Virus record (IMG/VR): IMGVR_UViG_2734482773_000007
Strand: one strand, 5' to 3'
Source: a virus
Lineage: Duplodnaviria > Heunggongvirae > Uroviricota > Caudoviricetes
Length of the DNA: 42,304 bases
The notes below the pieces were generated by a model, which worked only from the letters and a program-made list of their open reading frames with translations, ran no database searches and was not told the origin of the DNA. Each line of letters opens with the position of its first letter. The stretch's first letter is position 1. Both the position numbers and the translations under genes were made by a program. Shown here piece by piece: positions 1-41,979 of the stretch.

Positions 1-270
<270 letters not shown>

Positions 271-469: not shown

Positions 470-1873
470 TTGAGAATGCCGCGCACTGTAACACATAATC
501 CGGATAGCCCCAATAATGACGATGTTTTAGCCGCATCTGAAAAATGGGACGCCTGTAAACCCCCCTATACCAGCGCACACATGAAAATCTGTGTTGCTGC
601 CGCCAAAATCATCCTCGCTGCTTCCGGTGTGGCTCGCCGTTCCAAATACGAAAAAGAGAACTATCTCCGTATCGATTTCAGCAAAGCCGGTAAGGTTACA
701 TTTTACGCCGAGTTTCCAAAAAAGATGGGCCTCAAAGGTAAAAAGCTCGGCGAGTGGCCGGAGCTCGCTATCCAGCTGGCGCGCGAAAAAGCACTAGGTA
801 TGGCTGACGGTGGACTGCGGGCAGAGTCCGTACATGCAGCGCTGGAAATGTACCGGGATGACCTCAAAGCCAAAGTAGCCCGGCAGAAGCTGAGCCCGGA
901 CAGTTTCACAACCTACGGGGTGCGTATCGACCGGATTAAAGCAACGTTCGGCGAGCGCGAGGTGTTCAGCGACGTAACATACAGTCGGCTGGTGGAAGTG
1001 CTGGACGAGTGGATCGCCACTCGCTCGAACAATAACGCCCTGGAGTTGTTTGCCGAGCTCCGTCGGTTCTGGAAGTTCTGCGCACCTACTCTTTGCAACG
1101 GCCGCAATGTTGCCGCCAGTTTGCCAGATGATTATGTTTCCTCCCGCGTACAGAAACCCACCCCCACACGGCTTTTTACCGATATTGAATCAATCGCCCG
1201 ACTCTGGCTCAATGTTGCTGCCTGCACCTCTGTACACCAGAAGAATGCTGTTCGCTTCATGATCATCACTGGCGTTCGTCCGATTAATGTCCATAACCTG
1301 CGCTGGGACTACGTTCACGAGGAGGCTGGTGAAATTGTTTATCCGGAAGGGGTTATCGGCATGCGAGGGGCTATGAAAACACAAAAGGCTTTCCGGCTGC
1401 CGATAACGCCTGAGATCCGGCGGATTATCGACGAGCAGAAAGCCTGGCGTGATTCAGTTCCTGAGTGCAACAGGGATTATGTATTTTTGCAGCCACGTGA
1501 TCCAATGCAGCCATTTTCAAAACGATCACTGGATAAGCTGGTGAAAACATACAGCCCGGACGGGGCTGTAAAAGGAATAAAACATGATGGGACTGTTAAA
1601 GGGAAAGACGGTGCATTTAATACGATGTGCCGTAAATTCCTTAAGAGCAATGTTATTGCCTTGATGAAGGAAAGAGGCTATTCCCGCTCAGACCGAAGGG
1701 AAATCAGCCTCCTTTGCCTTCACCACTCCAGCAAGTCAGATGACCCGATGGCAGAACATTACGACTTTTCTGATGAGATTTTACAGGAAGAGATTGCGTT
1801 GAAGCGCGAAGCTTTCGAGGCTCACGAGCGGAGCATACTTGCGCAGGTGGCATTGCTACGGCGGCGAGGTTAA
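470..1873 (+). CDS. phage integrase, tyrosine recombinase family
   Basis: 467-aa ORF at the prophage edge next to a host gene and divergent from a Xis/AlpA-like gene; segment ITGVRPINVHNLRWDYV resembles box I (TGxR...L.W.D.D) of tyrosine recombinases. True start may be an internal Met. Confidence 0.7.
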   Translation: MRMPRTVTHNPDSPNNDDVLAASEKWDACKPPYTSAHMKICVAAAKIILAASGVARRSKYEKENYLRIDFSKAGKVTFYAEFPKKMGLKGKKLGEWPELAIQLAREKALGMADGGLRAESVHAALEMYRDDLKAKVARQKLSPDSFTTYGVRIDRIKATFGEREVFSDVTYSRLVEVLDEWIATRSNNNALELFAELRRFWKFCAPTLCNGRNVAASLPDDYVSSRVQKPTPTRLFTDIESIARLWLNVAACTSVHQKNAVRFMIITGVRPINVHNLRWDYVHEEAGEIVYPEGVIGMRGAMKTQKAFRLPITPEIRRIIDEQKAWRDSVPECNRDYVFLQPRDPMQPFSKRSLDKLVKTYSPDGAVKGIKHDGTVKGKDGAFNTMCRKFLKSNVIALMKERGYSRSDRREISLLCLHHSSKSDDPMAEHYDFSDEILQEEIALKREAFEAHERSILAQVALLRRRG

Positions 1874-2070
1874 TACCGGCTGCGACATTTTTGAATGAAA
1901 GCGTCGACATTTCGGCGCTCATAACGAACTACTTTTGCACTGAAACGAATTGGTGCCAGGATAGCCCGATGACGATGCTTAATATTCCACTCACATAGCG
2001 TTTTCTGTGTAATACCTAACTTTTGGCATACTTCATCCGGGGTGAGTAAATCGTCGGGTTTCTCGCTCAT
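1870..2070 (-). CDS. AlpA/excisionase-family small DNA-binding protein (putative Xis)
   Basis: 66-aa ORF, 4-bp overlap with the helicase gene, position next to int; LTPDEVCQKLGITQKTLCEW looks like a MerR/Xis-type helix-turn-helix. Confidence 0.6.
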   Translation of the reverse strand: MSEKPDDLLTPDEVCQKLGITQKTLCEWNIKHRHRAILAPIRFSAKVVRYERRNVDAFIQKCRSRY

Positions 2071-3461
2071 GCTATACCTCTCTTTTTCATGGCATCGAGC
2101 AGGATGTCCTGCACTGTTCGTTTTGAGTTGCGCCGCTCCATCACCATTTCGTCCATAGTGTCGGCAGCAATAATGTGGTGAATAAATACCGGACGATTGT
2201 GTCCGGCCTGTATCTGTCTGGTTGGGCCGATACGTTCAATAATTTGCTGATACTGCTCCAGGTCCCACCAGTGTGAGAAAAATACCAGTATGTTTCCGCC
2301 GTCCTGCATGTTCAGACCGTGGCCCGCGCTGGCTGGGTGTGCAAAGAGAACAGGAATCTTTCCGGAATTCCAGTCACGTAGTGTCTGTGGATCTTGGTCG
2401 AGGTGACGACCGCGAGGAAATGCTTTAAGCAAGCGTTCAAGATCGTGTTTCCAGTGATAAGCAACCAGCACAGGTGCGCCAGCTGCTTCGGTCAATATGC
2501 TGTCCAGCGCCTGTAGTTTGGTGTCATGCAGTTCTGACCAACTTCCGGCGTCGTCTGTGTATACTGCGCCACTGGCGATTTGCAGACACTTCAGTGTCTT
2601 TGCCGCGGCGTTCGGTGCTTCGATGCCTTCGCCATTCAGCTCGAGGAACATTTCCTTTTCCATTTCACGATACTGCTGACGGGCCTTCGGCGGCATATCC
2701 ACGCGGATTACGTTATGGATGGGGGCTTTGATATCGAACCAGTCGGCCGCATCCAGCGAGAGGGTCACATCGGCTAATGCTCGCTGTATTTCAGCCTGTG
2801 AGTGAGCAAACGGCTCCAGTTTGGTCCAGCTCTGCCCTGGAAACTGTATCGAGTTGAACCAGCGTGAGGTAAACGCGCCGTAAGTGCGTCCGAGACGTTG
2901 CCCCTGGTCCACAAACCACGCTTGTCCCCACAAATCTACCAGGCCGTTCGGTGCTGGCGTACCGGTGAGATTTATCCAGCGCCGGACATACTTATGCGCC
3001 ACTTTGCCCAGCGCCGCCGCGCGCTTACCACCACCTCGCAGCCGGAAGGATTTTAGCCGGGTGCTTTCATCCGGAATGACAGTACCGAACGGCCATCGTT
3101 CTCCCAATTCTTCAACCAGCCAGACAAGGTTATCGTAGTTGATGGTGAACACGCTTGCGTTGCTGTTCGCCAGCGCCGTAGAGCGCGCTTTGGCATTACC
3201 AACAATCGGCTGTACCTCGATATTGCGCAGATGCTTCCATTTCAGCGCTTCATCCGGCCATGTGCTTGCTACAACGCGTAGCGGCGCGAGGACCAGTGCG
3301 GGGCGTGTTTCTGCCCCTGCCATAAAGAGATCTTCCAGCGTAGTGAGCGTTGCCACGGTTTTACCCATCCCCATCCCTGCCCAGATGTTGCCGCGCAGGG
3401 TTTCGGTTTCGTGGTTGATAATGAGATCTTGGTAGGGGCGAGGTATATATTTTTGGGGCAT
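2067..3461 (-). CDS. SNF2-family DEAD/DEAH-box helicase
   Basis: 464 aa; Walker A GMGMGKT near N-terminus, DEST (DExx-like) motif, C-terminal helicase motifs; RBS GGAGCC 7 nt upstream of ATG. Confidence 0.85.
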   Translation of the reverse strand: MPQKYIPRPYQDLIINHETETLRGNIWAGMGMGKTVATLTTLEDLFMAGAETRPALVLAPLRVVASTWPDEALKWKHLRNIEVQPIVGNAKARSTALANSNASVFTINYDNLVWLVEELGERWPFGTVIPDESTRLKSFRLRGGGKRAAALGKVAHKYVRRWINLTGTPAPNGLVDLWGQAWFVDQGQRLGRTYGAFTSRWFNSIQFPGQSWTKLEPFAHSQAEIQRALADVTLSLDAADWFDIKAPIHNVIRVDMPPKARQQYREMEKEMFLELNGEGIEAPNAAAKTLKCLQIASGAVYTDDAGSWSELHDTKLQALDSILTEAAGAPVLVAYHWKHDLERLLKAFPRGRHLDQDPQTLRDWNSGKIPVLFAHPASAGHGLNMQDGGNILVFFSHWWDLEQYQQIIERIGPTRQIQAGHNRPVFIHHIIAADTMDEMVMERRNSKRTVQDILLDAMKKRGIA

Positions 3462-3477
3462 ATAATATGGCTCCTAA

Positions 3478-3511
3478 ACAACAAAAGGCCAATTTAGGCC
3501 TTTTGTTGTTT
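3478..3511. terminator. perfect 14-bp-arm palindrome (AACAACAAAAGGCC-N6-GGCCTTTTGTTGTT), possible bidirectional terminator
   Basis: Read directly; GGCC core stem followed by U-rich arm on both strands; sits immediately downstream of the AT-rich gene 3525..4442 and upstream of the helicase RBS. Confidence 0.45.
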
Positions 3512-3524
3512 TAAAAAATGTTAT

Positions 3525-4442
3525 TTATAATAGTGCTGTTACTATTGCATCTTTAAAAATATTTTCTTCTTCATTTATTAAAGGTGATGACAGATGAATA
3601 ATTACTTCTTTTCCTGTCAATACTATTTGCTCGACTTGAAATCCTGCGTTGTGTAGTCTTTGGCGTAACTTTTCTAGTGCTGATTTTGATATACTAAATC
3701 CTTCACTCCTTATAGTATAACTGGCAACTCCATTTTTAATAATATCTACAGAGTTGTCAATTTCCTGCTGCGAGTAATTTTTCGGTGAGTCGAAAAATCT
3801 GGATTTTGTCGTTGCTGTTGCCCTAAGAGATATCAATAATGATTTGATATCTTTAATCTCAGATGCCAGATACTCAGTTTCTGATACTTCTTTCTGGTCT
3901 AGTTGTGCAACTTTGAAAGTGCCAAAATGTTTGAGGAATGTTGTGTATTCAGGATCAGTTACTGACTTTAAATATGTTTCTTTTATCTTGCTCGCAAGTC
4001 TTTCTTTGAATAAATTGATTGATTGGTATCTTAAATCCGAAGGGTACTCTAAATGTTCAATTGATGAAATGTCAAAGCTATAAGGAGTGCGCTCGTCCTT
4101 AATAATTACGGTCGGTTTGTCAAATGCGAGACGCATTCCTAATTCAAACATTACATTAGCGTTTCGAGCACTTATATCGCAAACAACTATGGGGTTTTCA
4201 TAAAGATTTTGAACAATTCGTTTTTGTATTACTGCAACATCATCATCTGAACTTACCAAATTTGCCTTGAATCCGGCATCATTTGATGCTTCACAAATAA
4301 TGTCATGAACATTTCTCCAATGTCCAGTGGGATAACCTTCTATGTCCGCAATTGGCATAATAATGCCGCATATATGAGGTGGCATATTTTTGTTGTCTTT
4401 TACATCATCTTGGTTTATTTCTTTCGTTTGTTGCTTAGCCAT
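3525..4442 (-). CDS. AT-rich accessory protein: N-terminal TIR-like/ThsB-like domain plus ~170-aa C-terminal domain of unknown function
   Basis: 305 aa; codon usage visibly AT-rich versus neighbours; N-terminal pattern IIMPIADIEG ... NPIVVCDISARNANVMFELGMRLAFDKPTVII resembles the beta-strand / N-V-x-x-E-x-G core of TIR-like (ThsB/DUF1863-type) folds; RBS AGGAGT upstream. Confidence 0.5.
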   Translation of the reverse strand: MAKQQTKEINQDDVKDNKNMPPHICGIIMPIADIEGYPTGHWRNVHDIICEASNDAGFKANLVSSDDDVAVIQKRIVQNLYENPIVVCDISARNANVMFELGMRLAFDKPTVIIKDERTPYSFDISSIEHLEYPSDLRYQSINLFKERLASKIKETYLKSVTDPEYTTFLKHFGTFKVAQLDQKEVSETEYLASEIKDIKSLLISLRATATTKSRFFDSPKNYSQQEIDNSVDIIKNGVASYTIRSEGFSISKSALEKLRQRLHNAGFQVEQIVLTGKEVIIHLSSPLINEEENIFKDAIVTALL

Positions 4443-4457
4443 AGCTTACACAGACTC

Positions 4458-4742
4458 CTATTGTAATTTTTTGCCTAATATACATGAAAGCTCCTTACTA
4501 TCCAGTACTACCACGGTAAAGCCCAGTTTTCGCAGACGTTCATGCTCGCGCAACTGATCAGGTCGTGGTGGTTTGCCTGGTGCTTTGCATTCGACAAAAA
4601 CGATGCGACCGCCGGGTAGCAGAACAATGCGATCTGGTACCGAGCGGAGACCGGGAGATACGAACTTAAAGGCAACCCCGCCAGCCTTTTTTACTTCAGC
4701 GACGAGGTGCTTTTCGATTAGGTTTTCACGTTCATAGGCCAT
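4458..4742 (-). CDS. VRR-NUC domain nuclease
   Basis: 94 aa; PD-(D/E)xK-like core (VLLPGGRIVFVECKAPG); VRR-NUC commonly accompanies SNF2 helicases in phage replication modules. Confidence 0.75.
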   Translation of the reverse strand: MAYERENLIEKHLVAEVKKAGGVAFKFVSPGLRSVPDRIVLLPGGRIVFVECKAPGKPPRPDQLREHERLRKLGFTVVVLDSKELSCILGKKLQ

Positions 4743-4936
4743 TAGCTTTCGCCTTCCTGCTTTTTGCGTTTCTTCATGCAGATAGCGCAGTTCTCAGGAT
4801 GGTCATGCCATTCGTCAATCCTGATACCTGTGAACATCCATTTTCCGCATAGTGATATGGCTTCCCCCGAATTAAAGAAATGTGCTTTTTTCGACAGGGC
4901 GGGGAGCCCCCAACCTTTATTATCGATATTAGACAT
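4742..4936 (-). CDS. small hypothetical phage protein (Cys/His-containing)
   Basis: 64-aa ORF, 1-nt overlap with VRR-NUC start suggests translational coupling; contains HDHPENCAIC. Confidence 0.45.
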   Translation of the reverse strand: MSNIDNKGWGLPALSKKAHFFNSGEAISLCGKWMFTGIRIDEWHDHPENCAICMKKRKKQEGES

Positions 4937-5120
4937 CGTCCACCTCCTTACGCTTTTCGCGCATGTTCTGCATCAGACAAAAATCAAACCGACGTTCGCT
5001 TTGGCCCAGACCTGCATCGCCCGGTCGTACCCGCTGGACTGTTCAAGGCGCAAAGCCTCCCGCGCAGTCCGGTAATAAAGCGGACTGTCCCGGTATTTAA
5101 ATGACATAGGGTTTTTATTC

Positions 5121-5147
5121 CCAAATAAAAAACCCCGCGATGCAGGG
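5121..5147 (-). terminator. rho-independent terminator downstream of 5172..5933
   Basis: On the minus-strand RNA: CCCUGC-AUC-GCGGGG stem-loop (one G-U pair) followed by UUUUUUAUUU; 25 nt past the stop codon. Confidence 0.55.
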
Positions 5148-5171
5148 TTGTAATCAACAATAAGGGGGTAA

Positions 5172-5933
5172 TTACGAGGAAGCGTTAGCTATTTGAGCTT
5201 GTGTAAATTCGAAACCAGAATTTTGTAACCGTTGCACTAGACGAGGAACTGTTTCACGTACATGGTCGTTGAAATTCAGATACAAAATCCCGTTAGCATC
5301 AGAAGGCTGTTCTAGGTGCTGTTTCTGAAGGATTGCTACATTGCTGCGCCCTAAGGACGAAAGAAGCATACCCATCTCGAGTACAACGTTCTGTCTTGCG
5401 CGGGGTTGGATTTCTGCTTCACCGGCGCGCTTTGAGTATCCCATATCATCAGGTGTCAAAAGAACAATCCCGAAACGGGTAGCAGTTTGTCCTTGCCCAA
5501 TTTCACGTTCAAGCTCTTCAATAATGGTGAGTCCAGTCCCTCCCGTATTCTGCAAAATGAAATGGTCTGGTAATCCAAGTTTATGAAGGATTAGCTCAAG
5601 TTGCTCCTTTGCAGTATGGTCATGGCCGTGAACAATGAATATCTTTTTGGGGAGCTCAGATGGCTGTTCTACGGCTAGTGGTGTTGCCGTGGGTGGCGTT
5701 CCTAAATGGGTCATTATTGCAGTTTCAACATTGGGACGTTCTTGAGGGTTACCTTGAAACTGAATGGTCCGGGTGGTGTAAAGGTTAACAATTACGCCAT
5801 TCGTTAAACGATAGCAGTCACAAGTCTCACGCTGTTCGTGGGAAAAATTGGTGAACCCACACTCCCTCAAAAAGTCAGGAAAAGTTTCTCTCGGGTATGG
5901 ATAGGTGATCGGCATTTCAGTTAGTTCCTGCAT
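5172..5933 (-). CDS. two-domain accessory protein: N-terminal unknown domain plus C-terminal TIR-like domain (candidate anti-phage effector)
   Basis: 253 aa; C-terminal half KIFIVHGHDHTAKEQLELILHKLGL ... RFGIVLLTPDD ... ARQNVVLEMGMLLSSLGRSNVAIL matches what I recall as the TIR-like 'predicted nucleotide-binding' family signature (VFIVHG start, NV..E.G core); own terminator downstream. Confidence 0.55.
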   Translation of the reverse strand: MQELTEMPITYPYPRETFPDFLRECGFTNFSHEQRETCDCYRLTNGVIVNLYTTRTIQFQGNPQERPNVETAIMTHLGTPPTATPLAVEQPSELPKKIFIVHGHDHTAKEQLELILHKLGLPDHFILQNTGGTGLTIIEELEREIGQGQTATRFGIVLLTPDDMGYSKRAGEAEIQPRARQNVVLEMGMLLSSLGRSNVAILQKQHLEQPSDANGILYLNFNDHVRETVPRLVQRLQNSGFEFTQAQIANASS

Positions 5934-5997
5934 AAGTATTGTTCCTTTAATTTACTCGAATTCAGCATGTCGCCATAGCTCGATAAGGTGAGTTATA

Positions 5998-8061
5998 TCA
6001 ATCTTTTTTGTAGTGGTACGCCTCAAAACCGCCAGCGTTCAGTGGGATATCGGGCGCCCATTCGGGGTCAGTGGAGAGAAGCGCGGAAAGCGCTTTATCG
6101 TTGAAATCTTCTGTGTCAGGTGCTTCGGTGATCACCTCGTCGTGTACCGTCAGCACAATGCTGTAACCGGCATCTTCGATAAGCGGTATGTTTCCGGCCA
6201 GAACGTCGCGGGCGGCCGCCTGGGTGACGTTCTCCACCAGCTTTCCGCCGTAGGTTTTGAGTCGTTGCCATTTACGCGAATAAGAGTTAACACCCATGTA
6301 GGTGATATTCCCTTGTTCGATAACCGGAGACGGGTAGCATACAGCGCGTCCGGATGGTAGCTGTATGCGCAGCCACGCGCCATCGCGGCGGATTTTAAGA
6401 TAACCGCAATACAATGTTTTTTGCGGTGTGGCGATTGCAGTGCGGACGGTGCGCTCCAGTTCGTACCAGAAATCGCAGGTCGCCGGGTGCGCCCTGCGCC
6501 AGAGACGTTTAAGTGAGTCGCAGGCGATAAATACCCGTTCAGAAAGCCCGTAGGTTGACTTGCGTTTAACCGATTCGTCGTACCAGCTTTTCGCCTCGCG
6601 GATAACATCGCGGGGAATGTTTGGCAGTGCGGCGTTCGCCAGCTCGTCGAGATCGAGACCGTAAACCAGCGCAAAAGTGATGAAAGCCGATACACCACCA
6701 CCATAACCCAGACCGAGCTCCATGACTTTACCGATCTGACGCATGTGTTTATCAACATCATTTGGTGCAATATCGAAAGCTTTTGCATACGCCAGTTTAT
6801 ATAAGTCCGGACCCGTTCCGGCGTCGTACTCTCTGAATGCATTCAGTTTCCATTCTTCTCCCGCCAGCCATGCCAGCATACGGCCTTCAATGTTCGACAA
6901 GTCACTTACCACCAGCTTTTTGCCTGTTGGCGCGATAATGCAGCCACGTAACGCTGAACTGGTTAGTTCCATGATATTGTCAAACAGCAGGTCTGCACAT
7001 CCGGCTTTCAGTGCTTCGATGCCTTCGTCTATTTGTTCCTGTTTTAGTGAAGGGCGGGGAAGGTTCTGGGGCTGGAATAGCCGTCCGGCCCAACGACCGG
7101 TACGTGACGCCCCGCAGAACTGTAGCGTACCGCGTAAGCGCCCGTCGTGGCTTACGCCTTTCATCAGTGCCTTGTATTTACTGGTGCTGGTAGTACTGGC
7201 CTGCAGGCGGATAGCCAGCAGTTCTTTCACGGCAGATGGTAAATCGGGGTCGGCAATACGACGTTCCAGAGTACTGCGTTGCATGTCTGGTAGCTCCACA
7301 CCGTAGGATTCAACAATGTGCTTAATCAACGCGTCTCGTTGTGTGGCTGCCTGCACTTCGCCATCAGTCATTTCCTGTGTACGCTTTGCCAGGCGCTTTT
7401 GTTCCTGGTCTACCGCATCGATCGCAGCGCGTGCGAGTTCCACGTCCATGCAGACGCCCCGGTCGTTGATCTGCTGATCACGATGCCAGAGCGCCAGTTC
7501 TGTCCCCTGATAATTCCACTTCGGCAGACGTTTATAGACTTCGCGCATTGCCTCGATATCCAGTCCGGCGTAAGCAACAAAGCGCCGCCATTCTTCCGGG
7601 TGGGTTTTGCTGGTGGCCCGGCGCAGTTTGCTGTTTTTCGGGCGTGGCTTACAGAACAGCTGGATCAGCGCTTTACCTTCTTTGTCCTTCGCTTTGTCTT
7701 GCGGGACGCCTAGTACTTCGCAGAGTTCCCCCAGAGACCCCGGGAGACCGTGCGCCAGCGCCTGCACCATTGTGTCGCGCCAACGTTCGATTGGCGGTGC
7801 CAGGCGCGGCATTGCATAACGCAGGACGGTGCGGTCGAAGTGAGAGTTATGGAAATAAAGCAGGGTTTCAGGGTCTGCGATTGCTTCGTATAAGCCGTGT
7901 GGAATACCACCACCGGCAGTGATATCCCACACGTTTACGGGTCCGTCGTTGATAGCCCATGCGAACAGCATCACTTCAACGCCTTCGGCATACGCATGGG
8001 TACCGTTCGTAATAGGGATTTCGCAATAGGTTTCTAGGTCACCCCATAGTATATTGGACAT
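5998..8061 (-). CDS. family-A DNA polymerase (PolA-like, with N-terminal 3'-5' exonuclease-like region)
   Basis: 687 aa; overall resemblance to phage PolA proteins; sits within helicase/nuclease/primase replication module. Confidence 0.75.
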
Positions 8062-8454: not shown

Positions 8455-9093
8455 TTAAGCATCTACCCCTTCGTCAGAAGGGAGGCCGATCATTTCGTTG
8501 AGAGTTTCGCGTCGTATAGCTGGCGGAAGCGGAGCAGATGGTGCATCGGCTGGCAGAAGTTCTTTAGCTTCAGGCCACTCTTCCAGCAGGCGCTTAACTG
8601 TGCGCACTTTACTGAGTGCAGCGCTGACATTCTGTCGAATGTCTGACTCATCGCTCTGTATCTGCTCATAAAGTGCATCAAACCCGTAAAACTCTGTAAC
8701 TAGAGGGTCATTTGCCAGAAGGGTAAATTCCCCCGGCGCGATTTTGTGAATATGGTCTGGTGACCCTGATTCATATCCTCGATAGTTACCGTTGAAATAG
8801 ACGGTAACCCGAGAACCTGCCAGATTCAGACACATGTAACACTCTTTCCTGATAATATTATTGGCGGTTTTTAATGCTTCGGGGAATTTTGATACCAGTG
8901 TTTCTATTTTTTTTATAATTTTTAATATTTCAGCTTCTTTCTCTACGCCCCCGATAGCTGCAAGCCGAACACGTTCGGCCCATTCAACACGAGCAGCTCG
9001 TAGTGCTGATTTACGTTTGGGGATACCCGCTTTCTCAAGTGCGTTATTGATGATTTGAGTTTTAAGGTGATTAGTTAATACGGGCTGTGACAT
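8455..9093 (-). CDS. hypothetical phage protein
   Basis: ORF extends to 9123 but GAGGGA RBS precedes the Met at 9093 (MSQPVLTN...); no recognisable motifs. Confidence 0.5.
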   Translation of the reverse strand: MSQPVLTNHLKTQIINNALEKAGIPKRKSALRAARVEWAERVRLAAIGGVEKEAEILKIIKKIETLVSKFPEALKTANNIIRKECYMCLNLAGSRVTVYFNGNYRGYESGSPDHIHKIAPGEFTLLANDPLVTEFYGFDALYEQIQSDESDIRQNVSAALSKVRTVKRLLEEWPEAKELLPADAPSAPLPPAIRRETLNEMIGLPSDEGVDA

Positions 9094-9144
9094 TATTCTT
9101 TCCCTCATGAGATACCCCAGCACGTAGCTGGGGGATGAATATTT

Positions 9145-40491: not shown

Positions 40492-41037
40492 TTATGTGTG
40501 AGATGAGTTATAAATAATTTCAGAGTGAAATTTAGTAATGAATGTGGAGTCATCAGGAATGTCATGCAGTACCAATGCATGAGCTCCTATTTTTACATTA
40601 TTCCCTATATGCACTTTGCCACCAAGGATGGTGGCGTTACAGCCAATGGTTACATTATTTCCTATGACAATATCCATATCATTAAATTCACCGCGAAGTC
40701 CAATAGTTACCCCTGGCTTAATTGAACAATTTTCACCTATTGTAACTTTGTGACCGATAACAACGCCATTGAGATAAGATATGTCGAACCCTTTACCAAT
40801 ATTTACAGTTAAGGGAACGGTTACATTGTATTTATCAAGAATGAAGCGTTCTATTTTTCCTGCAATCTTTCGCCGGTATCCTCCTTTATCAAAAAGATAT
40901 TTTGCTACGCGCCACCAAAATAAATAACGTAATCTTCTGTGTTTTATTGCGCGAACAATTGCTTTTCGCCAGGAGAAAGGGCGTTTATAACCTATTACTT
41001 CATAGTGTATACAGTTTTTAAGTTCACTAATATTCAT
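40492..41037 (-). CDS. hexapeptide-repeat acyltransferase (left-handed beta-helix; candidate lysogenic-conversion acetyltransferase)
   Basis: 181 aa; repeated [LIV]-G-x-x-x-x-I-G units (VVIGHKVTIGENCSIKPGVTIG ... IGNNVTIGCNATILGGKVHIGNNVKIG); AT-rich; convergent with Tfa, 10-bp gap. Confidence 0.7.
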   Translation of the reverse strand: MNISELKNCIHYEVIGYKRPFSWRKAIVRAIKHRRLRYLFWWRVAKYLFDKGGYRRKIAGKIERFILDKYNVTVPLTVNIGKGFDISYLNGVVIGHKVTIGENCSIKPGVTIGLRGEFNDMDIVIGNNVTIGCNATILGGKVHIGNNVKIGAHALVLHDIPDDSTFITKFHSEIIYNSSHT

Positions 41038-41331: not shown

Positions 41332-41979
41332 CTATGAAGCTAATTTGTTTAATTTCATTTGTAGCGACTTTACTTCTTGGTCGATAATGTTGAATCCCTT
41401 ATTGACTGCATCTCTTAGTTCTGCATCAATATTTTTTATCCCTTGAGCATAATCTACCATTACATCTATTTTTTCATCATGTAATCTCTTATACATGGTT
41501 TTATCTTTGTTATTGTCAGCCATACCAATAAGGATTTTTTCATAATCCTCAATGAGTTTGTTGTTTCCTTTAAATGATTGTATTAATGACCGTGAATATG
41601 TGTAGATATTAATTATTGAGTCTCTGGCAGAATCATTTAGTTTTGCAATGACATTCGCATTTTGCTCATAGAATGTGAAATTATCATCCCCTACAGGGAA
41701 AGTGAGAATTAACATCTGTCCGGGTTTGATATTATCAATGTGTGTTTTCATCCTTTTATTATATAAATTGATTAGGGTGAAAACTTCTCCCTTAACACCT
41801 TTTAATACTGAAAGTTGCAATTCAAGGGATTCTCTTTCTGTCTCTACTTTAGACAGCTTAGCTTGTTGGGTAACTCCTTTTAGGGTAAACCATCCGCCAA
41901 TAAGAGTACCAACTAGAGCTGTGAGGGAGGAGGATAACCATCCAGGAATGCTATTTAAAAAATTACTAAATTCACTCAT
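41332..41979 (-). CDS. AT-rich hypothetical protein with N-terminal transmembrane anchor
   Basis: 215 aa; N-terminal hydrophobic segment LSSSLTALVGTLIGGWFTL then coiled-coil-like region; strongly AT-rich. Confidence 0.5.
   Translation of the reverse strand: MSEFSNFLNSIPGWLSSSLTALVGTLIGGWFTLKGVTQQAKLSKVETERESLELQLSVLKGVKGEVFTLINLYNKRMKTHIDNIKPGQMLILTFPVGDDNFTFYEQNANVIAKLNDSARDSIINIYTYSRSLIQSFKGNNKLIEDYEKILIGMADNNKDKTMYKRLHDEKIDVMVDYAQGIKNIDAELRDAVNKGFNIIDQEVKSLQMKLNKLAS

Follow-up and report, generated by a model that had tools for sequence, protein, structure and literature searches.

A stand-alone TIR-domain gene with a TBP-like N-terminal module on an optional cassette of an Escherichia coli prophage: a candidate abortive-infection gene

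Introduction

PF10137 is the type of TIR domain found in Cap12 of the cyclic oligonucleotide-based antiphage signaling system (CBASS) and in PycTIR of the Pycsar system. In Cap12 (PDB entries 7un8 and 9lmq) it is combined with a STING sensor and in PycTIR (8jsj) with a cyclic nucleotide monophosphate (cNMP)-binding domain. CBASS loci are recognized by an adjacent CD-NTase and a STING or SAVED sensor, Pycsar loci by a cyclase and a cNMP-binding domain, and Thoeris loci with ThsB by a ThsA-type gene (SIR2, Macro, or transmembrane with SLOG). SpbK of the integrative and conjugative element (ICE) ICEBs1 of Bacillus subtilis (PMC8880864, PMC12847820) is reported to recognize the phage protein YonE (PMC12847820). 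The PADLOC candidate (PDC) set of Payne et al. comprises 145 candidates that were found embedded in BREX, DISARM or type I restriction-modification loci (10.1101/2024.01.29.577857), and its entry PDC-S35 (model PDLC05003) is a single gene with a C-terminal PF10137 TIR domain. Here we describe a gene for a 253-amino-acid (aa) TIR protein of this last family in an Escherichia coli prophage. It lies in a stretch of 42,304 nucleotides of viral DNA (IMG/VR record IMGVR_UViG_2734482773_000007), which was analyzed at full length and is called the window in the following.

An earlier reading of the bare sequence, referred to here as the original prediction, had taken the gene for a TIR-like, single-gene sensor-effector organized like a moron and acting during lysogeny against superinfecting phages. 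Our analysis confirms the underlying observation and supports the interpretation apart from the timing of expression. We conclude that the gene is probably a stand-alone abortive-infection gene coding for a sensor joined to a TIR NADase and carried on a cassette of temperate phages.

Domain architecture of the TIR protein

The open reading frame (ORF) on the minus strand at 5172..5933 begins with ATG, and its 253-aa translation agrees with the one quoted in the original prediction, including the motifs KIFIVHGHD (aa 97-105) and ARQNVVLEMGMLLSSLG (aa 179-195). The protein is 100% identical to WP_001157068.1 of E. coli strain JNEC-KY203 (locus L002), whose RefSeq name is already "TIR domain-containing protein", and it matches PHROG 16442, a family without assigned function. 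The gene has the following parts.

5172..5933, minus strand: coding sequence of the TIR protein, 253 aa, consisting of a TBP-like N-terminal domain, a linker and a PF10137 TIR domain; PADLOC PDC-S35, PHROG 16442
5700..5912, minus strand: N-terminal domain, aa 8-78; helix, four strands, helix; TBP-like fold, putative sensor
5646..5699, minus strand: linker, aa 79-96; predicted to be disordered, poorly conserved
5175..5645, minus strand: TIR domain, aa 97-253; Pfam match at aa 97-222 plus a conserved C-terminal helix region
5376..5378, minus strand: codon of Glu186 (in NVVLEMG), the predicted catalytic glutamate

A TIR-like domain had been expected at residues ~115-230, with the proviso that the idea should be dropped if profile searches found none. 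Pfam PF10137 (CAP12/Pycsar TIR) aligned with aa 97-222 over positions 1-118 of its 119-residue profile (E 2.9e-31), with 108.4 bits against a cut-off of 24.7 bits, and the C-terminal domain was also recognized by its flavodoxin-like TIR fold. When a profile of 53 full-length homologs was compared with solved structures, only the Cap12 TIR-STING proteins (9lmq, 7un8) and PycTIR (8jsj) matched. The glutamate of NVVLEMG, which the original prediction had singled out as conserved, is Glu186; it is invariant in 53/53 homologs and aligns with the glutamate of "nvvFEFG" in 9lmq and 7un8 and of "nvhLEFG" in 8jsj. Altogether, 62 columns are invariant across the 53 homologs. TIR domains share their fold with 2′-deoxyribosyltransferases, and the replication module of the prophage includes the nucleotide modification-associated protein Nmad5 (see below). 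The TIR protein might then be a nucleoside or nucleotide N-glycosidase or a base-exchange enzyme serving a DNA-modification or nucleotide module together with Nmad5. We regard this as very unlikely, since TIR structures ranked above deoxyribosyltransferases, the Pfam and PADLOC matches are TIR models, the slot occupied by the gene is dispensable, and homologs are found in unrelated elements without Nmad5 or the polymerase.

The N-terminal domain, which the original prediction had been unable to place, is a TATA-binding protein (TBP)-like module of the RNase HIII/RnlA type, an assignment that is new from the present analysis. Its fold resembles that of the N-domains of RNase HIII and RnlA, and the top two PDB matches of its profile were LsoA (E 0.051) and RNase HIII (E 0.36), both aligned on the motif "YxtGtvqfQGk". 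Two Pfam families gave sub-threshold matches to it: RnlA_toxin, with E 0.098 for the window protein and at best 8.5e-4 among 12/53 homologs, and DUF3378, in 3/53 homologs. In RNase HIII and in RnlA/LsoA the TBP-like domain is fused to an RNase H or a HEPN nuclease, whereas here it is fused to a TIR domain, and the domain of the window protein differs from theirs in not being basic: its net charge is -4, within a range of -6 to +4 across 23 homologs. The two domains are separated by a linker for which the predicted local distance difference test (pLDDT) score is <50 at aa 80-92 and the median identity is 22%. From its N- to its C-terminus, the protein thus consists of the TBP-like domain, a linker of ~18 residues predicted to be disordered, and the TIR domain.

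Divergence and reuse of the N-terminal domain

The two domains have diverged to very different extents. Across the 53 homologs, the TIR domain had a median identity to the window protein of 70.5%, compared with 27% in the case of the N-domain; in codon comparisons the nonsynonymous divergence (dN) of the N-domain was 4-9x that of the TIR domain. For the latter, dN ranged from 0.017, obtained against the allele of Proteus, to 0.26 while synonymous divergence (dS) was saturated; judged by these sequences, very strong purifying selection acts on the TIR domain. As synonymous sites were saturated in every available pair, the dN ratio alone can be used, and positive selection on the N-domain is not claimed. 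More than 2700 homologous protein clusters, together with a nonsynonymous divergence far below the saturated synonymous one, show that the TIR gene is a real gene and not a chance ORF.

An antisense ORF of 81 aa lies within the TIR-coding part (5341-5586, plus strand), and an 81-aa gene has been called at the equivalent antisense position of the Serratia locus (L015, 8202-8447). The antisense frame is probably open as a consequence of how strongly the sense frame is conserved.

With a profile of the N-domain alone, 814 representative proteins were found at E ≤1e-3. The top matches were mostly TIR fusions or fragments; other fusions were present as well. In P0256 (617 aa) the N-domain precedes a region matching the PADLOC defense model for dCTP deaminase (E 7e-173), and in P0240 (428 aa) it precedes ~7 predicted membrane spans. 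Such an occurrence on interchangeable cell-stopping effectors is the pattern that would be expected of a portable sensor. The anti-phage dCTP deaminase (PADLOC "dCTPase") matters here solely as an indication of a portable N-domain: at least one such protein, P0256, shares the N-domain, whereas effector and depleted metabolite differ. Tandem arrangements of the N-domain were seen too, as was its presence in a recurring set of proteins of ~150-165 aa whose C-terminal region ("...LLKRVKDALS..GLTV...") is conserved.

The TIR gene lies on an optional cassette

The original prediction had placed the gene inside the early replication operon and had conceded that homologs might turn out to be conserved core replication proteins. 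A blastn comparison with the related loci L001 and L003, which lack the TIR gene, showed that homology ends at 5110 and restarts at 6010, so that 899 bp in the window correspond to 14 bp in these relatives. The boundaries at 5111 and 6009 imply that the terminator and the 64-nt leader belong to the insert, whose GC content is 0.45-0.47 compared to 0.55-0.59 in the polymerase gene. The cassette and its flanks are as follows.

5111..6009, minus strand: optional cassette of leader, gene and terminator, 899 bp, inserted past the polymerase gene end and before the ANR-family gene
5934..5997, minus strand: leader, 64 nt; ribosome-binding site AAAGGAA at ~5942-5948 and weak promoter-like ATGGCG-17-TAAATT, from direct reading of the sequence
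5121..5149, minus strand: intrinsic terminator; 8-bp stem, 3-nt loop, T-tract
5998..8061, minus strand: upstream flank, family-A DNA polymerase (PF00476), a core phage gene present in 159/159 related E. coli loci
4973..5107, minus strand: downstream flank, ORF of an ANR-family regulator, truncated (44 codons vs 72 in L006)

The clean terminator on the gene's own strand that had been noted beforehand is indeed there. A terminator-like hairpin, AACCCTGCATCGCGGGGTT, is followed by TTTTATTT on the same strand (5149..5131), 22 nt past the stop codon. The hairpin region has a folding energy of -18.1 kcal/mol (z = -2.05 vs shuffles), and a hairpin directly past the TIR stop codon is also present in the alleles of E. 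coli Sx181 (L005), Serratia (L015) and Providencia (L028). In an alignment of four allele leaders, the element ATGGCG-17-TAAATT of the window has 6/12 consensus matches by direct reading, and the aligned element of the Providencia allele, TTGCCA-16-TAGATT, has 9/12. At the polymerase stop codon, direct reading gave a TGATATAAC element without the final T.

A related polymerase region was present in 159 complete E. coli genomes, of which 38 covered at least 80% of a 3.7-kb query spanning the TIR gene, and the window allele was present in 37 of the 159 related loci. Searching with the cassette only, we found it in 47/5426 complete E. coli genomes, 37 times as this allele and 10 times as a diverged one, and always as one chromosomal copy. 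The reading frame was intact and annotated as a coding sequence in 37/37 E. coli copies of the window allele. This intactness, the low dN of the TIR domain at saturated dS and the 62 invariant columns make it highly improbable that the gene is a decaying or nonfunctional passenger ORF, as the truncation of the adjacent ANR-family ORF in the window lineage might have led one to suppose.

Comparison with further relatives showed that the cassette position is used by different alleles. In the Sx181 prophage of E. coli, identity to the window is 89-93% for core proteins but only 72% for the TIR protein, which indicates an allele exchange at the slot. Phages of Serratia and Providencia have the TIR gene in the same position after the polymerase gene, and in a Salmonella relative it occupies another slot, upstream of the polymerase gene. 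The cassette is followed in the window by the ANR-family ORF and by these genes.

4742..4936, minus strand: 64-aa ORF, downstream of the TIR gene and before the VRR-NUC gene
4458..4742, minus strand: VRR-NUC gene, downstream of the TIR gene
3525..4442, minus strand: 305-aa ORF, between the SNF2 helicase and VRR-NUC genes
2067..3461, minus strand: SNF2 helicase, further downstream of the TIR gene

The original prediction had seen the gene wedged between the polymerase and VRR-NUC genes; the position is right, but two small ORFs, the ANR-family and the 64-aa ORF, intervene before VRR-NUC. In the early region of the window (2067-8061) and loci L001-L006, at least three slots hold variable cargo. 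The slot between ANR and PolA contains the TIR gene, the antirepressor gene Ant, a small ORF or nothing; the slot between VRR-NUC and ANR contains DUF4406, DUF7446, an S-adenosylmethionine (SAM) methyltransferase or the 64-aa ORF; and the slot between SNF2 and VRR-NUC contains a gene with the BstA C-terminal domain, the cytosine methyltransferase Dcm, Rha/Arc genes or the 305-aa gene. BstA is a prophage abortive-infection protein, and the presence of its C-terminal domain in the neighboring slot of relatives shows that slots of the early region do hold defense cargo. The TIR gene is an accessory insertion with its own terminator and not a core replication gene. Two traits of moron organization, presence or absence between otherwise collinear phage genomes and an own terminator (the hairpin and T-tract at 5121-5149 within the inserted segment), are found here.

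Homologs in unrelated elements and comparison with described systems

Homologs with 51-87% identity were found in varied settings: an integrative element of Vibrio cholerae; two islands, one carrying Mrr and PemK and the other DUF4062, a reverse transcriptase and ParDE; an acidobacterial conjugative element; and a P4-like satellite region with a Phytobacter allele of 83% identity. The satellite-borne Phytobacter copy is located between primase and integrase and thus not in the canonical psu-int hotspot of P4, so that an argument from this hotspot was rejected. The homolog of V. parahaemolyticus (L026/L027; 55% identical) belongs to a long series of short ORFs on the same strand, among them LysE and acetyltransferase genes, and this region looks like a chromosomal integron cassette array. 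In Proteus mirabilis (L033, 42-1565 and 3467-7068) a decayed copy of the same prophage family resides at the same chromosomal site (acpS-pdxJ-recO-era side); its polymerase gene is split and its SNF2 gene reduced to a fragment, and its TIR gene is intact, 87% identical, and ~3.4 kb from a SIR2 protein matching the PADLOC candidate PDC-S25.

In about a dozen unrelated contexts no neighbor of the TIR homologs recurred, which agrees with the single-gene organization proposed originally. Small ORFs upstream of the homologs in Vibrio and other loci were considered as a shared partner and rejected, as they show no relationship among themselves. No cyclase or ThsA-like gene recurred beside the homologs in the contexts examined, and near the TIR gene in the window no cyclase, SIR2 or Macro partner was found, as the original prediction had stated.

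These contexts bear on the possibility that the gene serves the lytic cycle of its own phage, either as a counter-defense enzyme destroying immune signaling nucleotides of the host or by manipulating NAD+ or nucleotide pools, and is transcribed with the replication genes instead of in the lysogen. Such a role would fit the location of the gene within the leftward early operon, where it comes next after the polymerase gene, as well as its 64-nt leader lacking a consensus promoter and a post-polymerase position that is kept in phages of E. coli, Serratia and Providencia. We nevertheless consider it unlikely, because counter-defense makes little sense for the homologs in defense islands and in conjugative and integrative elements, the TIR gene has stayed intact in the decayed Proteus prophage, the N-domain is common to a protein matching the dCTP-deaminase defense model, and most phage relatives do without the TIR gene.

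The view that the gene lies outside the canonical described systems holds for CBASS, Pycsar and Thoeris, but the protein is already catalogued as PADLOC candidate PDC-S35: aa 10-253 aligned with profile positions 3-245 of 245 (E 6.8e-109, 361 bits), and there is no structural difference, so that the window protein is a member of this family. As to CBASS, the neighbors are the polymerase gene and the ANR-family ORF instead of a CD-NTase, the locus contains no cyclase, the N-terminal domain is TBP-like where Cap12 has a STING sensor, and the NCBIfam Cap12 equivalog models gave 34.8 bits against a cut-off of 450 bits. As to Pycsar, there is no cyclase and no cNMP-binding match, the TBP-like domain standing in place of the cNMP-binding domain, and the PADLOC PycTIR model matched the TIR part only (E 1e-8). 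A ThsA-type gene as in Thoeris was found neither here nor in the other contexts. To SpbK there is no detectable sequence relationship outside the TIR fold; its sensing region and host phylum are different, and it is carried by an ICE and not in the early operon of a prophage.

Since PF10137 is the TIR type of Cap12 and PycTIR, the protein might also be an orphaned signaling component, working either in trans as the effector of a host-encoded cyclase in a CBASS- or Pycsar-like manner or as a ThsB-like producer feeding a host effector. One report describes a cyclase-independent TIR-SAVED effector (10.1101/2025.06.19.660554), which would agree with this. An N-domain that is TBP-like and not of the STING, SAVED or cNMP-binding type, the Cap12 equivalog score of only 35 bits and the absence of a recurrent cyclase or ThsA-like gene in the contexts examined make this explanation quite unlikely.

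The 305-aa gene and other genes of the prophage

The 305-aa gene at 3525..4442 was considered as a partner of the TIR gene. It has a low GC content (0.33-0.36), and the N-terminal part of its product gave weak TIR/2′-deoxyribosyltransferase-like matches with an "NVMFELG" motif (PADLOC TIR effector E 1.1e-6, Pfam sub-threshold); a BLASTP comparison with the TIR protein was insignificant. The TIR gene was present in 24/24 E. coli genomes having the 305-aa gene; these 24 copies are at least 99.7% identical and thus represent one prophage lineage. A role as obligate partner was rejected, as the gene is absent from 13 E. coli carriers of the window TIR allele and from the Sx181, Serratia and Providencia prophages, and a Klebsiella prophage has a 305-aa homolog without a TIR gene. 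The family comprises 4466 clusters of ~300 aa without a Pfam domain, sometimes labeled "RNA helicase", in which the N-terminal two-thirds are conserved and the C-terminal part is variable. The 305-aa gene may be a second, independent cargo gene. In strain JNEC-KY203 (L002, 3709-4406), the closest E. coli relative, it is interrupted by an IS1 element, and the TIR gene there is 100% identical to that of the window.

The window is an E. coli prophage. Its tyrosine integrase gene (470..1873) adjoins a small ferredoxin-like gene (1..261), which we take from its sequence to be yfhL. The prophage is nearly identical to the deposited genome of phage vB_EcoM-611R5, with core proteins 97-100% identical and a TIR protein 98.4% identical to those of the window. 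The ANR-family ORF (4973..5107) ends in a stop after 44 codons and lacks an internal stretch of ~36 bp relative to L001; in the near-identical L002 it is labeled "frameshifted". The replication module includes the Nmad5 protein (8455-9123, minus strand; PF18757, E 1.1e-56), which hints that DNA or nucleotides of this phage family may be modified. At the right end of the prophage, just past the genes for tail fibers and fiber assembly and on the opposite strand, lies a gene for a hexapeptide-repeat transferase (40492-41037, minus strand), a position and orientation typical of lysogenic-conversion cargo, e.g., a surface-polysaccharide acetyltransferase. It is followed by a 215-aa ORF without assignment (41332-41979). 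An Rfam search of the window revealed no RNA families.

Discussion

Family membership and genomic context suggest that the TIR protein has an anti-phage function and NADase activity with NAD+ as the substrate. The anti-phage function is supported by the PDC-S35 match, the accessory cassette, the mobile and defense contexts of homologs, the asymmetry between a variable sensor and a conserved effector, the reuse of the N-domain, and the BstA slot. The TBP-like N-domain (aa 8-78) would act as a sensor or regulatory module that recognizes a cue of the infecting phage, either one of its proteins or an intermediate of nucleic-acid nature, e.g., an RNA:DNA hybrid. Recognition would release or promote self-association of the PF10137 TIR domain, and this oligomerization would activate the enzyme; the TIR domain would then hydrolyze NAD+ via Glu186, and the infected cell would be stopped before the competitor phage completes its cycle.

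A nucleic-acid cue is suggested by the TBP-like domain of RNase HIII, which binds RNA:DNA hybrids (PMC3710099). Recognition of a phage protein would fit at least as well to an N-domain that is acidic here, near neutral in the family and fast diverging. A wider proposal, which we regard as rather doubtful, is that the TBP-like domain of ~70 residues is a portable infection sensor. In response to a cue from the phage, be it an RNA:DNA hybrid, a replication intermediate or a phage protein that evolves quickly, it would switch on the effector to which it is fused, a TIR domain (NAD+ depletion), dCTP deaminase (dNTP depletion) or multi-pass membrane domain. In this prophage it would be part of an early-transcribed weapon used against co-infecting phages or satellites during lytic growth, alongside or instead of a role in the lysogen.

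Several points weigh against a defense gene of the kind we favor, in particular one active in the lysogen. Optional presence and an own terminator agree with the moron organization that had been proposed. As to an own promoter, a sigma-70 scan gave no passing site in the 64-nt leader or in the 3′ end of the polymerase gene, and the aligned promoter-like element has 6/12 matches in the window and 9/12 in the Providencia allele. The TIR gene belongs to the leftward early operon, which is under repressor control, and it lies downstream of the S24/HTH repressor gene; lack of a recognizable promoter together with this position means that it may be silent in the lysogen. It may then be transcribed only during the phage's own lytic growth, a poor fit to a classical moron expressed in lysogeny, and if it is expressed only with the replication genes, the phage would need to avoid triggering its own TIR protein. 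It is also odd that the cassette terminator is located upstream of the ANR-family ORF and the VRR-NUC and SNF2 genes of the same operon, which would be unexpected for a neutral passenger. With respect to the protein, the AlphaFold2 model of the TIR domain has a mean pLDDT of 74, with 53-65 for aa 121-180, a moderate confidence that does not allow the geometry of the active site to be assessed, and a substrate different from NAD+ is possible. The nonbasic N-domain weakens the version in which a nucleic acid is sensed. Finally, PDC-S35 is a predicted family, so that membership alone does not establish function; the authors of the PDC set call its candidates untested (10.1101/2024.01.29.577857), and the searchable literature yielded no mention of PDC-S35 and no experimental work on this family or on the combination of TBP-like and TIR domains.

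Sensor-TIR fusions on mobile elements are an established theme, and the gene described here does not constitute a new kind of system; new are the placement of the N-domain, its occurrence on other effectors, the exact boundaries of the cassette and the map of slots. If the proposed function is correct, it would validate one of the single-gene candidates of PADLOC with a compact protein of 253 aa that is easy to study, and with vB_EcoM-611R5 a near-identical inducible phage genome is on record. Mapping the variable early-region slots of this common enterobacterial prophage family, which has its own family-A DNA polymerase, is useful for finding further defense or counter-defense genes. The small TBP-like module would in that case be a reusable infection sensor that serves at least three kinds of cell-stopping effector, and the cue recognized by such sensors is the main question for single-protein abortive-infection systems.

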